Shown one piece after another: positions 11,040 through 42,614 of a stretch of 64,000 bases of DNA. The notes below the pieces were generated by a model. The model was not told the origin of the DNA and did no database searches. It saw nothing but the letters and a program-made list of their open reading frames with translations. Position 1 is the first letter of the stretch. Each line of letters opens with the position of its first letter. The translations under genes were made by a program, and so were the position numbers. Where the stretch lies: NCBI GenBank assembly GCA_963668305.2, contig CAXXPN010000001.1, positions 736,001 through 800,000 of the forward strand. Reading direction: 5' to 3'. Source of the DNA: Alphaproteobacteria bacterium. GTDB lineage: Bacteria > Pseudomonadota > Alphaproteobacteria > Bin95.

Positions 11040-11642
11040 CCGCCTTAAGGCTGTGTCGGCCTGCGGAGGGGGGAAACACTCCAGCGAATACTCGCCAAAT
11101 GCGACACCGGGCAGCCGCCGAACCGACACAAATGCGATACCCCTTCTCCCCGGCCCCTGTTCCGGGTATCTCCCTCGGGGCGGTCGCGGCGGCGGAAGTG
11201 GATGGCCGGATCGGGTCCGGAGCAGGCTGCTTCGCTCCGTCCGGGGCGGCGGTTGTGAGCCTGGCCCGAAACGCGGCGCGATGCGGAAGGATTCGGTTTC
11301 GGGAGGCGTTTCCGGAAATATTGGAAATAATTCCGCGTAAGTACTTGACCTCAGAATATCCGTGCTAGAATAGGTCCGAGGGAAGAGGCATCCGCGGACC
11401 GCTTCCCTTCCTCCGGCCCGGCCCGGCGCCGGAACGACCCCGATTCGGCAGACGGGCGAAGTGCGCCCAACGCTCGGCTCGCGCGCGCAATCAAGCGCGC
11501 AAAACGCGCCGCCGCGAAACGCGCAGGCCTGCCCGCACGCGATACGCGCGAAACAGGGTCGCTCCCCGCCGGGGCGGCCTGTCCGTCAACGCCGCCCTTC
11601 CGGCCCGGCGCGGTCCCGCACCGCAGCCGGGCTTCCGGTATC

Positions 11643-11657
11643 GAACGCCAGCGGAAC
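11643..11657 (+). promoter_or_regulatory. Putative alphaproteobacterial LexA box
   Basis: GAAC-GCCAGCG-GAAC directly before the SD AAAGGAG of the terS-like gene. Confidence 0.45.
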
Positions 11658-11673
11658 GAAAGGAGCCGCCTCC

Positions 11674-12666
11674 ATGCCCCTGATCGACCCGACCGTAGCC
11701 CTCTCCACACGCCAGGAGGCCTTCTGCCGCCACTATGCCGTCTCCGGCAATGCCGCCGACGCCGCAAGGCAGGCCGGCTATTCGGAGCGCTCCGCACGAC
11801 AGACCGGCTGCGCGCTTCTGGAGCGGCCCTATATCGTCGAGCGCCTGCGCCGCATCCGCATGTCGTGGCGGCGCACCGAACGGGACGAGGCCCGCATTGT
11901 GCTTGCCCGGCTGGAGCAGGCCTGGGACGCCGCCGTTGCCAGCGGCTCGGCTTACCTCATGCTCCGGGTCCTGCGCTTCCAGGCCGAGCTCTCCGGGCTC
12001 GTCAGGCCTGCCGGGGCCAACCGGGCCCGCCTCTGGCCGATGCCGCACGAGGACGAGCTCGGAGAGATCGAGGCCGGCGAGGCTGAGGAGGCCGGCACCG
12101 GGCCCGGCCCGCTCGCCGAGGCCGTGCGCAGCGGACGCGACCGCGCCGAACGTGCGCTGGCCCGCCACTGCGAGAGCCGGGAGGAACGGGAACGGCAGGA
12201 GGGTTTCGACCGGGCCGCGCATGAGGAGGCCGCCCGGAAGCTCACGCAAGCCGTCGAGGAGCGCGAGCGCCTGCCCGCCGGTTTCGAGACCCCCGAACCC
12301 GCTTCACCCGAAGACCTGCTCCCCGCCGACGACCCGCCCGAGGAGACCTACGAAGAGGGCCTGTGGGCAGGCGATCACCCGCCCGGCGGCGAGGACAGGA
12401 TCGACGACGACCGGGCCGACGGCGCCGAACATGACTGGCTCTACCAGCGCCGCAACGGCTACGCCGAAATCTACGACCCCTGGACCCCGGAGGAGGTCGA
12501 GCGGCGAAGGCAGGACCGGCTCGAACGGGAAGAGTGGGGCGGCGGCGAAGATGACGGCTGGAGTGGACCGGCGACGAGAACGAGGAAGAAGAAAAAGAAA
12601 AAGAAGAAGGGGAGAAGGACCGGGCCGGAGGACGCCGGTCCTGTCCCCGGACATGACAAAACATGA
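11674..12666 (+). CDS. Terminase small subunit-like protein with long acidic/basic C-terminal extension
   Basis: LSTRQEAFCRHYAVSGNAADAARQAGYSERSARQTGCALLERPYI fits the TerS HTH pattern; followed by LARLEQAW...LRFQAELSGL helices; strong SD. Confidence 0.75.
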   Translation: MPLIDPTVALSTRQEAFCRHYAVSGNAADAARQAGYSERSARQTGCALLERPYIVERLRRIRMSWRRTERDEARIVLARLEQAWDAAVASGSAYLMLRVLRFQAELSGLVRPAGANRARLWPMPHEDELGEIEAGEAEEAGTGPGPLAEAVRSGRDRAERALARHCESREERERQEGFDRAAHEEAARKLTQAVEERERLPAGFETPEPASPEDLLPADDPPEETYEEGLWAGDHPPGGEDRIDDDRADGAEHDWLYQRRNGYAEIYDPWTPEEVERRRQDRLEREEWGGGEDDGWSGPATRTRKKKKKKKKGRRTGPEDAGPVPGHDKT

Positions 12667-12688
12667 CATTCCATGACATTCCATGACA
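12652..12688 (+). repeat. 10-bp-period tandem array CATGACAnnn x4
   Basis: Units at 12652, 12662, 12672, 12682. Confidence 0.95.
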
Positions 12689-12818
12689 TCCGGTAGGGGC
12701 TGCGCGGCAGCGGCCCTGCTGCGAGGCCGGTTGCGGGTCCGGCGGTTTCGGGCGGCGCATGGCGGCATTACACTGCCGGGACGTTGCGGGCAGGCGCCCC
12801 GGCGAGAGGAGAGCGGGC

Positions 12819-40127: not shown

Positions 40128-40499
40128 CTACTCGTCCGCGCGGAAATTCAGCTCGATCAGGACCTCGTTCGGATCGTGCACGAAGATCTGGCGCAGCCTG
40201 CCGCCCGGCACCAGGCGGGTCTCGTGCTCATAGCCCTTCTCGCCCAGGAACGCGGCGTAGCGGTCGAAGCCTTCGGCTGCGAAGGCCACATGGTCGATGC
40301 AGCCCGTGCCGGACATATCCTGCTCGTCCACGCCGATCAGGTGGATCACCGCTTCCGGGCCGCAATAGAGCCACGCGCCCGGAAAGTCGAAATTCGGGCG
40401 CTCGCCGTTCTCGAAGCCCAGAATGTCCTCGTAGAAGGCGACCGTCTCGTCGAGCTTGTCCGTCGTGATGTTGACGTGCTGGAGCATGGTCAGGGTCAT
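40128..40499 (-). CDS. VOC/glyoxalase family protein
   Basis: LQHVNI, FYEDILG, DHVAF, HDPNEVLIEL. Confidence 0.85.
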   Translation of the reverse strand: MTLTMLQHVNITTDKLDETVAFYEDILGFENGERPNFDFPGAWLYCGPEAVIHLIGVDEQDMSGTGCIDHVAFAAEGFDRYAAFLGEKGYEHETRLVPGGRLRQIFVHDPNEVLIELNFRADE

Positions 40500-40513
40500 G
40501 GGCGCAGCCTCCT

Positions 40514-42028
40514 TCAGGCTTGGCTCGGCAGGTTGGAGGGGATGTCGGGGTCGAGGGGATAGATCGGGCGGCGCAGCTTCTTCCAGGGGAACAGGCTGTA
40601 GTCCGAGGTCGTCGCGCCCGGCCCGGCGAGCATCACGATCTCGCGCGCTATCGGCTCGAATCCGGCGCGGAAATGCTGGCGCGACTTGATGAGGACATAG
40701 CGCTTGGAGGCCGGGTCGATGCCGCAATGGGTGAAGCAACCGGTATCGAACGGCTCGTAGCGGTCTTCCGAAACGACGACCTCGGCCGCGCCCGTGTCCA
40801 GCACGACGGTGCGCCCGAGGGAGAGCCGCACGCCGGTGAACATCGGCCCGGTGACGGTGAACTCGCCGTCGGTGATCCGCCGCACCCGGCCGCGGAGCCG
40901 GAGCGGTTCGCCCTCGAGCCCCATTGCCGGCATGTCGGTCTTGCCGCCGATCTCGACCTCGACCTCGGCCCCGACGCCGGCGGCGATCATCTCCGCAACG
41001 GCCTGCCCGTCCGAGAAGGGCCCCGCAACCATGTCCGTCAGGCCCTGCCGCAGGCACTCCCGCAGGGCGGCCATGACATCCTGGTTGCCGCCGGACCCGG
41101 TATTGTCGCCGTGATCGACCAGCAGCACGGGGCCGTCCCCGTCCTGCATCGCAGCGGCGCGGGACACCGAGTCCGCCATCGGCTCGATTTCGAACAGGAA
41201 GTCGGCGCGCTTGTCCCAGGCCTCGCCCATCAGGTCGAGCACCAGGCGTTCCGCCCTGTCCGGCGGCCCGACGACGACGGCCGAGATGCCGACATGCTCG
41301 ATATCGGCGAGCGGGAAACAGCCGAACACCGAGGCCAGCAACACCTCTCCGCTTTCTTCCGCAGCGCGCGCCCGGTCCACGATCGCCTGCATGGGCGGCC
41401 GCGAGGGCGAATGCACATTCATGTGCGGCATCAGCGGCAGCGAGTGCCAGGCGGTTGCCGACGCCTTGCCGGCTATCGCGTGCAGCAGCGCGTCGCCCGC
41501 CCGCATGCCGGTCTCGTACATGTCTATATGCGGATAGGTGCGGTAGCCGGCCAGCACCGTCGGCAGCAGCGCCAGGTCGCGCGTCAGGTTGGTGTGGAAG
41601 TCGAGCGCGACGGCGATCGGCAGGTCCGGCGCCTCGGCCCGGATACGGCGCAGCAGCTCTCCCTCGCCGTCGTCGAAGCCTTGCGTCACCATCGCGCCGT
41701 GGAGGTCGAGGAAGAGCGCGTCGCAGCCTTCGCGGACCGCTTCCAGAATGGCCTCGGAGACAAGGTCGAGAATGTCGTCGGGCGCCGGCGCGCTCGGATG
41801 CGCGTTCGCCGCAATCGGCACGGCGAGCGCCGCCCCCTCGCGTTCGGCGATGTCGATAAAGGCGGCGAGCGGGTTGTTGGTGCCGCGATAGACGCGCACC
41901 GCCTCCCCGCCCCGCGCCGGCCCGTCCGTCGAGCCGATCCGGCCGAAGGCCGAGACGGGCGTGGGGACCGGCGAGAAGGTGTTGGTCTCATGGCGCATCA
42001 GCGCCGCAACGAAGCGTTTGCGGTTCAT
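40514..42028 (-). CDS. M81 family metallopeptidase (MlrC-like)
   Basis: HETNTFSP, LHGAMV, DFHTN, YPHID. Confidence 0.88.
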   Translation of the reverse strand: MNRKRFVAALMRHETNTFSPVPTPVSAFGRIGSTDGPARGGEAVRVYRGTNNPLAAFIDIAEREGAALAVPIAANAHPSAPAPDDILDLVSEAILEAVREGCDALFLDLHGAMVTQGFDDGEGELLRRIRAEAPDLPIAVALDFHTNLTRDLALLPTVLAGYRTYPHIDMYETGMRAGDALLHAIAGKASATAWHSLPLMPHMNVHSPSRPPMQAIVDRARAAEESGEVLLASVFGCFPLADIEHVGISAVVVGPPDRAERLVLDLMGEAWDKRADFLFEIEPMADSVSRAAAMQDGDGPVLLVDHGDNTGSGGNQDVMAALRECLRQGLTDMVAGPFSDGQAVAEMIAAGVGAEVEVEIGGKTDMPAMGLEGEPLRLRGRVRRITDGEFTVTGPMFTGVRLSLGRTVVLDTGAAEVVVSEDRYEPFDTGCFTHCGIDPASKRYVLIKSRQHFRAGFEPIAREIVMLAGPGATTSDYSLFPWKKLRRPIYPLDPDIPSNLPSQA

Positions 42029-42155
42029 GGGGCGCCATTCTGTCCGATGCGGACAGGCATGGCAAAGCACCGGCCGGCATGCAAGGCCGCATATCGCGGC
42101 CCCGGGCCCGGCTCCGGACAGGTCGGAGAACGGCCAGCCTGGAAGTTTGCGCTCT

Positions 42156-42614
42156 TTTTCCGGGAAAAATATCCTGAAATAGATTGACATATAGAAATCC
42201 TGTGGCAATATGGGGCCGGAGGAAGGAAACGGCGTCCGGAGGCCGCTTTCCGCCGCACCGGCGCCGGTTCAAAGCCACCTGAGAAACGGACAGGAGAGGT
42301 GCGCGCTCTGCTTCGCGCGCGCAATCAGGCGCGCGAACCGCGCCGGCGCCGACGCCCGCCCGCGCCCGCGCGCGTTACGCGCGAAACAGGGACCCGTTTG
42401 CCGGGCGAGCCGGCGGCGGTTGGAACAGAACGGATACGGAGGACCGATGAGCGATATGCCCACCCTTGCCGCAAGAGGCCCCGGATCGCAGTCCGGGGCG
42501 ACGAATTCCCCCAGCGTCATTCCGGCCGGAGCGCAGCGGAGAGCCGGGACCTCGTGCGGCTCAGCCGGAAACCCATTTGCGGCGGACCATGACAAAACAT
42601 GACACTTCATGACA
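42156..42614 (+). mobile_element. Dispersed element, copy C (51-codon mini-ORF 42447-42602 containing REP-like palindromes)
   Basis: TTGACA 42184; TTCGCGCGC-GCAATCAG-GCGCGCGAA 42312-42337; ACGCGCGAAACAGGG 42377-42391; GGAACAGAACGGATA, GGAGG, ATG; CATGACA x3 42588-42614. Confidence 0.65.
42478..42553. repeat. Two REP-like palindromes
   Basis: CCCCGGATCGCAGTCCGGGGCGACG and CGTCATTCCGGCCGGAGCGCAGCGGAGAGCCGGGACC. Confidence 0.65.

Follow-up and report, generated by a model that had tools for sequence, protein, structure and literature searches.

A dispersed family of short elements joining a TerS-like gene or its reduced derivatives to a phased CATGACA array in an alphaproteobacterial genome

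Three elements in the window and their genome-wide family

The 64-kb window analysed here (the whole stretch of DNA, 64,000 nucleotides) lies on a 983-kb contig of an Alphaproteobacteria bacterium whose genome, referred to as G000, comprises 5.52 Mb in three contigs with 67.5% G+C and is 99.6% complete. Three loci of the window, A, B and C, carry copies of one element on the forward strand, and only copy A encodes a sizeable protein, which resembles the small terminase subunit (TerS) of phages. Five modules in a common order had been predicted at these loci, and reading and alignment of the loci recovered all of them at the predicted coordinates. A 15-nt spacer stands between TTGAC(C/T) and TAGAAT in both A and B, and all three copies contain a GGAAG..CTTCC hairpin-like palindrome, GC-rich palindromes and the invariant 15-mer ACGCGCGAAACAGGG, which is exact at 11544, 23289 and 42377 and has no other exact match in the window. 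The motif GGAACGA/GGAACAGAACGG precedes a Shine-Dalgarno sequence (SD) and an ATG in each copy, the open reading frames (ORFs) that follow have 330, 26 and 51 codons, and the copies end in CATGACA-N3 arrays of four units in A (12652-12688), four in B (23426-23462) and three in C (42588-42614). The two-unit pattern CATGACA-N3-CATGACA matched the window 9 times against 0.17 expected, and none of 100 shuffles reached 9. For ACGCGCGAAACAGGG with up to 2 mismatches, at least 3 matches were found in 4 of 100 shuffles of the window. One assignment was changed: the array at 23093, formerly counted as part of element B, belongs to the end of the upstream vapBC cassette. The features of the three elements are as follows.

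11307..11372, + strand: 5' end of element A, an AT-rich block with AAATAATTCC at 11325-11334 (from sequence reading and conservation)
11346..11351 and 11367..11372, + strand: hexamers TTGACC and TAGAAT of element A, with a 15-nt spacer containing TGc
11379..11673, + strand: conserved GC-rich leader of element A, putative 5' untranslated region, with ACGCGCGAAACAGGG at 11544-11558 and GGAACGAAAGGAG (SD) before the ATG
11674..12666, + strand: TerS-like gene P0001, 330 aa, whose stop is the TGA of the second array unit
12652..12702, + strand: array of element A (CATGACA x4, 10-bp period, 12652-12688) and a short GC-rich 3' motif
23093..23109, + strand: degenerate two-unit array CACGACAtcgCATGGCA directly after vapBC, the sole upstream array among 89 elements
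23150..23369, + strand: 5' end and shortened leader of element B (TTGACT 23185-23190, TAGAAT 23206-23211, 15-mer 23289-23303)
23370..23462, + strand: 26-codon mini-ORF of element B (23370-23450) entering the four-unit array (23426-23462)
42156..42446, + strand: 5' end and leader of element C (TTGACA 42184-42189, CAATAT 42206-42211, 15-mer 42377-42391)
42447..42614, + strand: 51-codon mini-ORF of element C (42447-42602) entering the three-unit array (42588-42614)

The original prediction, which described three copies, understated the scale of the family, as there are about 100 copies per genome and they occur in 13 of 16 sister genomes. A promoter-leader profile search of G000 gave 108 matches that merged into 100 loci, and 95 of these have an array on the same strand within 3 kb downstream (two of them share one array). 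The exact 12-mer core of the leader occurs 46 times in G000, and 44 of these cores are followed, 88 to ~1600 nt away, by a phased CATGAC array on the same strand. With 44/46 cores and 95/100 loci linked in this way, the motifs do not occur independently of one another. The units measure ~0.4-1.4 kb and keep a fixed architecture across the ~100 loci, which are dispersed and show no tandem arrangement: an AT-rich start, sigma-70-like hexamers with an extended -10, a ~230-bp GC-rich leader, SD and ATG, an ORF, and an array of 2-6 CATGACA units at a 10-bp period followed by a short G-rich motif. Conservation has a sharp 5' limit ~40 bp upstream of the -35 hexamer, in the AT-rich block with AAATAATTCC, and a 3' limit ~15 nt past the last array unit, within a CGCAGGGGGTCC-like motif; in element A, similarity to other copies stops at 12702. 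An upstream array is present in 1 of the 89 elements examined, which rules out a cassette model with arrays on both sides, and membership among integron cassettes was rejected on the same count and because the units are dispersed. Arrays can also stand without a full leader. At G000 C2:597231-597400, the ortholog of a copy in the sister genome G016 (L126), the whole middle of the leader is lost while the promoter-like start, the array and the 5' hairpin are kept, the hairpin now ending in a terminator-like T-run; such orphan arrays go undetected by the leader profile. A separate ~150-200-bp repeat starting with AACGTTCATTGCAGGGGGGACC directly follows CATGACA at five G000 sites (C2:577987, 1803465, 2215507 and 2764257; C3:320241).

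To define the distribution of the family, 16 sister genomes of the same genus and 14 genomes of other genera were surveyed. The leader was found in 13/16 sister genomes, with tens to hundreds of candidates each, and in 0/14 genomes of other genera. The TerS-like gene was found in 12/16 sister genomes, with 6-17 matches each, many of them N- or C-terminal fragments. G016 has 40 occurrences of the exact three-unit array and G009 has 7, against none in G001, G003 and G013, and the reversed pattern, searched as a control, had no match in any genome. G001, G003 and G013 have neither the leader nor the TerS-like gene nor the exact array. The family is confined to one genus, where leader, array and TerS-like gene co-occur. 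G009, with its 7 exact arrays, has 3 weak leader matches and no TerS-like match to P0001 at E ≤ 1e-10, and may hold either relics of the family or a diverged partner gene.

The ORFs carried by the G000 copies fall into several classes. An intact TerS-like ORF of 318-376 aa is present in 8 copies, and a ninth is shorter (272 aa). In two copies a 53-aa ORF fuses the N-terminus of the TerS-like protein directly to its C-terminus, and three copies encode another, acidic and lysine-rich protein of ~160-190 aa ('MTATDPR') that is unrelated to it and gave nothing above noise in a Pfam search. The remaining copies have ORFs of 15-130 codons of several types. In all classes the ORF begins with SD and ATG after the leader and ends within the array, an ending that is unavoidable because a 7-mer containing ATGA every 10 nt places TGA and ATG in all frames. 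The idea that the mini-ORFs encode conserved peptides was not supported, as the commonest class, 'MPKT', reads through a second, out-of-frame ATGCC(C/G)GAA block, which is the ORF start in shorter copies. The predicted family of gene-bearing and 'empty' members is borne out by the 53-aa deletion derivatives and by the many N- and C-terminal fragments across the genus: most gene-less copies are ORF-deleted or ORF-replaced derivatives.

The TerS-like protein and its array

P0001 matched Pfam Terminase_2 (PF03592) at 3.1e-13 and 51 bits (cut-off 26.1) and phrog_51 at 2e-14, and a profile of 21 homologues matched the DNA-binding domain of SF6/SPP1 G1P in the PDB (4zc3/2cmp/3zqp). The AF2 model of P0001 is all-helical, with a confident core at residues ~11-110 and without a catalytic fold, and Foldseek superposed 50 residues of it on 4zc3 (rmsd 0.8 A, 42% identity). 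Full-length SPP1-like TerS aligned to the model over 133 columns with a poor rmsd, with predicted helices at 52-90 and 93-106, and a complex prediction with four copies of residues 1-115 scored 0.12, short of the mark of 0.42 needed for an answer. As judged from the profiles and the model, the first ~110 residues are a bona fide small-terminase DNA-binding domain of the SPP1/SF6 type and include a predicted oligomerisation core. The C-terminal ~200 residues are conserved genus-wide and in a 46%-identical relative. For the 8 intact G000 paralogues, with a dS of 0.28, the overall dN/dS is 0.37 and drops to 0.17 in residues 1-115, indicating that these copies are old and selected and not decaying. 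Public records label the protein 'terminase small subunit'; however, no large-terminase neighbour or packaging module lies beside gene A, whose neighbours are a PrlF/YhaV pair and a cyclase gene. By its domain the protein belongs to the TerS family; by its context it does not.

The likeness to the SPP1/SF6 G1P TerS (Terminase_2, phrog_51) extends from the protein, with its N-terminal helix-turn-helix DNA-binding domain followed by long helices, to the arrangement of the locus, in which a gene-adjacent cluster of short direct repeats, here the presumed recognition site, corresponds to the phage pac site; the CATGACA array also stands beside terS/terL in phage contigs. Unlike the phage system, the family lacks adjoining terL, portal or capsid genes, the genome has no intact large terminase, the protein has a conserved C-terminal extension of ~200 residues, and there are 8 paralogues and ~100 arrays per genome, which the protein would presumably bind.

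Seven TerS-like relatives of 43-64% identity, from contigs of metagenome-assembled genomes (MAGs) and metagenomes, all have a downstream (C)ATGACA/CTGACA array at a 10-bp period (7/7); their leader is short or absent, and one has five arrays in tandem. The gene-array pair is older and more constant than the promoter-leader, since the distant relatives keep the array and not the long leader. The exact three-unit array was also found in 10 viral contigs of unrelated composition, in 3 of them within ~1.3 kb of terminase genes. In L139 the array lies ~230 bp upstream of a phrog_51/Terminase_2-like terS that is followed by terL, in L138 the contig begins with the array, with an unassigned ORF and terL after it, and in L136 it lies near terL and an HNH gene. 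This adjacency in 3/10 contigs is only suggestive. A tblastn search of INPHARED phages with P0001 gave matches at the level of the DNA-binding domain only (≤34% of the query), and a megablast search of PLSDB plasmids with locus A gave no match. Sequencing runs containing the locus include a coral metatranscriptome, and the relatives that carry titles are sponge-associated Rhodospirillaceae MAGs. In distant Rhodospirillaceae MAG contigs the array is followed by a conserved palindrome TGTTTCACGTGAAACA (L002 2892-2975; L090 3173-3235; L091 2813-2875), which in L002 lies in the mnmE-mnmG spacer and continues as GAAACAGGG, the core of the invariant leader motif. REP-like palindromes (CCCCTCCC..GGGAGGGG / CCCCGCAAGCGGGG) lie beside G000 elements (window 9780-10020), and the same type lies beside arrays in the distant metagenome contig L092 (2530-2660 and 2950-3080).

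Building on the observed architecture, homology, selection and co-occurrence, we propose that the units are amplified modules of terS and a pac-like site, and that the TerS-derived protein recognises the arrays of all copies, a reading to which we assign a probability of roughly 40%. The TerS-derived protein made by full copies would bind, in cis as well as in trans, to the phased CATGACA array, as phage TerS does to pac-site repeats. To the large terminase of a phage, whether incoming or a helper, these complexes would be sites that start packaging or act as decoys. The element would thereby hitch-hike in capsids together with host DNA next to it, or packaging would be diverted from the phage. 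Binding of the array by the protein is probable on the comparative evidence. The role of the complexes in packaging initiation or as decoys has about one chance in three, and the link to capsid packaging is the weaker of the two. A bolder version, which we regard as unlikely, is that the genus has all of its replicons seeded about every 55 kb with dedicated packaging-initiation arrays and keeps 7-17 copies of a matching TerS gene, domesticated or selfish. Host DNA would then become the target of whatever phage large terminase is compatible, and the unit would be a minimal terS+pac 'hitcher' that makes the whole genome transducible cargo, or an anti-phage packaging decoy.

The earlier suggestion of binding or packaging sites for the TerS-like protein has thus gained independent comparative support from the distant relatives and the phage contigs, but its packaging half lacks a resident large-terminase partner, and several further observations weigh against the proposal. 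No TerL_ATPase or Terminase_6N match was found in the 99.6%-complete genome, and its sole large-terminase match is the TerL_nuclease gene of a prophage remnant truncated by an insertion sequence (IS). Residues 116-300 match no known family in Pfam, and an Atlas search with them returned noise only. Gene-less copies conserve a promoter-like start, a leader and an SD for which the packaging model gives no account, though each of the rival explanations covers some of these features, and the array stands downstream of terS in the family but upstream in L138 and L139. The elements show no orientation polarity along the replicons. Three of the 10 array-bearing phage contigs have the array beside replication-initiator, ParB-like or integrase genes, exact phased 6-mer repeats were found in 0 of 8 other Terminase_2-like loci, and a scan of viral contigs with protein alignment gave 3 loci at the level of the DNA-binding domain and no full-length protein. 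Contigs of one coral metatranscriptome run, which may contain DNA, are the sole hint of transcription, and array binding is itself deduced by comparison. The prophage remnant (G000 C1:920636-927472; L036 5636-12472) encodes a tyrosine integrase, a helix-turn-helix protein, a 708-aa large terminase with TerL_nuclease only and a partial portal, and is followed by transposon genes. Membership among gene transfer agents (GTAs) of the RcGTA type, which have a conserved head-tail structural cluster with TerL, was rejected on this single TerL_nuclease match, other GTA genes being outside that search.

The leader, the promoter-like start and the insertion sites

The ~230 conserved nt of the leader, with their invariant 15-mer directly behind a promoter-like start, raise the possibility that the leader is itself the product of the units, as a multicopy non-coding or dual-function RNA (a small RNA, a sponge or a cis-regulator) with the array as an RNA motif. 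The original prediction had called the leader structured, and this was not upheld. RNAalifold over 35 leader copies gave a covariation term of -0.29 kcal/mol with compensatory change in 1 of 22 pairs, and the minimum free energy (MFE), computed on 12 of these 35 with 20 shuffles per copy, was no better than that of the shuffles on either strand (mean z-scores -1.2 sense and -1.5 antisense). The leader stems are conserved as sequence palindromes (TCGCGCCGGCGCGA and GCGCCGGCGC) that can pair locally or mutually, and a vote among the MFE structures was ambiguous on the pairing between two GCGCCGGCGC palindromes. The sole hint of constraint at the RNA level is that G-U variants exceed A-C variants in the predicted stems. 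A comparison with Rfam (release 15), which had been advised, found no family for the elements at the gathering score, the best E being 0.37 on the opposite strand of locus C in a search to E ≤ 10; the only Rfam matches in the window are tRNA genes at 225-311 (-) and 27560-27632 (+). Contigs of the metatranscriptome run X1 cover pieces of element A, part of the leader included, at 85-100% identity, and they were not counted as expression because the library may hold DNA. With the distant TerS-like relatives keeping the array and not the leader, we consider an RNA product quite improbable.

The two hexamers (-35 and -10), together with a TG that stands one base ahead of the -10, rank with the most informative positions of the 5' end, gene-less copies included, and these conserved hexamers are a putative promoter. 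A standard sigma-70 scan of locus A called neither a promoter nor an intrinsic terminator; the TTGACC-TAGAAT spacer of 15 nt lies outside the 16-18 nt that the scan allows, hence no promoter was called. This start is the basis of a second explanation, in which the units are mobile promoters with an operator that acts as a roadblock: the TerS-derived factor would gate read-through at the exit array, making the ~100 loci a trans-regulated set. In accordance with it, in all four resolved insertions (A, B and the G016 copies L124 and L134) the unit replaces or splits the spacer that immediately precedes a co-oriented gene, giving that gene a new SD-proximal region, and the array, with TGA and ATG in three frames, ends any translation before the exit. 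Among 63 nearby downstream genes, 39 are co-oriented with the element and 24 are convergent. The co-oriented majority keeps part of the earlier idea of a portable promoter for downstream genes, but the 24 convergent neighbours, at which many units would drive only antisense transcription, make such a role partial at most and rule out that the units are obligate leaders of downstream genes. The explanation is further weakened by the spacer that fails the standard scan, with a transcription start that is only predicted, and it leaves unexplained both the 8 selected paralogues of the would-be regulator and the phage arrays beside terminase genes; we regard it as doubtful. Putative mobile promoters, or promoter reuse in prokaryotes (PMC3575422), likewise involve near-identical promoter-like sequences upstream of unrelated genes, and in the family recent insertions stand directly upstream of co-oriented genes, but the unit described here is far larger, with a leader, an ORF and an array, and 24/63 units face convergent genes.

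The insertions themselves were delimited by comparison with relatives. The inserted segments at A and B are as follows.

9566..12817, no strand assigned: G000-specific insertion of 3.25 kb with REP-like palindromes, the PrlF/YhaV pair, element A and ~130 unique nt (from synteny of relatives)
10234..11039, + strand: PrlF/MazE-like antitoxin (10234-10581) and YhaV-like toxin (10581-11039) genes (PF15937, 6e-16; PF11663, 1.8e-56)
22279..23510, no strand assigned: G000-specific insertion of 1.23 kb, from stop codon to next start codon, with vapBC, the degenerate array and element B
22402..23069, + strand: Phd/YefM-like antitoxin (22402-22674) and PIN-domain VapC toxin (22671-23069) genes

Empty sites confirmed the presence/absence polymorphism that had been proposed as a check. 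In 5/5 relatives the site of A is a conserved intergenic spacer of ~118 bp between the same two genes, and the site of B is empty in 3/3 relatives with adjacent flanks, with an 18-bp stop-to-ATG spacer in G016 and flanks that are 1 and 23 bp apart in G015 and G003 by BLAST coordinates. Locus C is orthologous in G016 and G015, and synteny with G016 and G005 breaks 9 nt past the array, where G016 has an IS. When 30 elements of G016 were compared with G000, 6 were collinear with a G000 element, 10 shared only one flank, 2 (L124 and L134) had a precise empty site in G000, 1 (L126) had an internally deleted version in G000 and 11 were unresolved. Insertions A and B each hold a complete type II toxin-antitoxin pair just upstream of the element and co-oriented with it; the same PrlF/YhaV and Phd/VapC pairs occur in the relatives elsewhere, away from elements.

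The mobile unit envisaged at the outset agrees with the recent insertions and empty sites, but has no transposase, inverted repeats or consistent target duplication. As predicted, no transposase, integrase, terminal inverted repeat or target duplication was found at A, B or C, and the junctions of A, B, L124 and L134 showed neither inverted repeats nor a clear duplication. In many cases more DNA than the conserved unit was inserted, and at A and B the inserted DNA includes the toxin-antitoxin pairs. An exception was seen in G011, where TAGTGTCCCGG inverted repeats and a 9-bp duplication flank one of the copies and G000 has a clean empty site; these repeats are the ends of an unrelated IS4/IS5-like element, no empty copy of the bounded unit was found, and a second copy there has no inverted repeats. 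The IS4/IS5-like IS is itself drawn to the family. It measures ~1.35 kb with the inverted repeat CAYTAGTGTCCGGTT and a 9-bp target duplication, and 6 of its 9 G000 copies lie inside CATGACA arrays (C2: 96777-98129, 396967-398319, 830799-832151, 1620070-1621422, 1803690-1805042 and 2102419-2115505). Its duplications are ACATTYCAT-like, and it inserted independently in the orthologous locus-C array of G016 (L029 3762-4089), which suggests that it strongly prefers the array as a target.

The family structure of a few coding copies and many short copies that keep both ends, together with insertion polymorphism, resembles that of an autonomous transposon and its miniature derivatives (MITEs), but the family differs in having asymmetric ends and neither a transposase fold nor terminal inverted repeats nor consistent target duplications. 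Membership in a known IS/MITE class was rejected because A, B, L124 and L134 have no terminal inverted repeats or duplication and the only conserved ORF is all-helical and TerS-like. A non-canonical transposable element was considered in its place, whose enzyme would be encoded elsewhere or borne by the host, with the TerS-derived protein as an end-binding accessory or regulator and the array and the AT-rich start as asymmetric ends, by analogy with rolling-circle or single-strand transposons. The autonomous-like copies and deletion derivatives, the sharp asymmetric ends without inverted repeats or target duplications, the polymorphism between species and the synteny breakpoints (10/30 G016 copies match a G000 copy on one flank only) all agree with it. 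No candidate enzyme was found, however, and the protein of the element is all-helical without a catalytic fold; the inserts at A, B and L134 exceed the conserved unit with unrelated DNA on both sides, no target sequence is conserved, and the sole copy with inverted repeats and a 9-bp duplication, that of G011, uses the unrelated IS4/IS5-like ends. We judge a transposon of this kind improbable, to about the same degree as the promoter with an operator.

That the copies could be decayed ordinary prophages or the ends of a known IS or REP family had been named as the outcome that would overturn the element. The 'terminase small subunit' label in public records and the richness of G000 in IS and REP-like repeats are what one would expect in that case. 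The context, the selection and the junctions contradict it: no further phage genes lie next to A, B and C, the 8 paralogues are under purifying selection, the ~0.4-1.4-kb architecture is fixed at ~100 loci, and A, B, C, L124 and L134 have no inverted repeats or target duplications. This explanation is very hard to credit.

Relation to known packaging systems and significance

The family is a dispersed repeat family of autonomous and non-autonomous members built on a phage packaging-recognition module. Phage satellites are single-copy islands of 5-15 kb with an integrase, att sites and modules for replication and regulation. If the proposal of amplified terS and pac-like modules is correct, the units would share with them the principle of a chromosomal TerS homologue and its cognate site that depend on a helper for all else; they differ in measuring 0.4-1.4 kb, in their ~100 copies and in the lack of integrase or att sites at A, B and C. 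Membership among phage satellites was rejected on their size, the lack of an integrase at A, B and C and the lack of an att-like duplication at the insertion junctions. Satellites with a TerS of their own or with the ability to redirect packaging, namely SaPI/PICI and minimalist islands, are the closest of this kind, and 'hitcher' elements (PMC11389934) belong to the same comparison. In lateral transduction and at pseudo-pac sites (PMC10996546, PMC8575950 and PMC12946183), host DNA is packaged by the headful mechanism from chromosomal sites, which are chance look-alikes of a phage pac or the pac of an integrated prophage. The sites of the family would differ in being dedicated, amplified and accompanied by their own TerS genes, with packaging here a deduction. 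No description of a multicopy element of terS and array was found in the accessible full-text literature, supplementary files being outside that scope.

If the TerS-derived protein does recognise the arrays, the units would represent a novel type of helper-dependent element, smaller and more amplified than any yet seen, consisting of a DNA-recognition subunit and its site and nothing else. If the bolder version with a genome-wide hitcher were true, they would form a new class, far smaller than known phage satellites and present in ~100 copies. With the family one can test directly if pac sites can be placed genome-wide by bacteria or by their parasites. The label 'terminase small subunit' that all these genes currently carry wrongly implies prophages. 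Whatever its function, the family shapes the genomes of coral- and sponge-associated bacteria: its copies are found at synteny breakpoints, they attract IS insertions, toxin-antitoxin pairs travel along with them, and they have recently taken the place of sequence upstream of genes.

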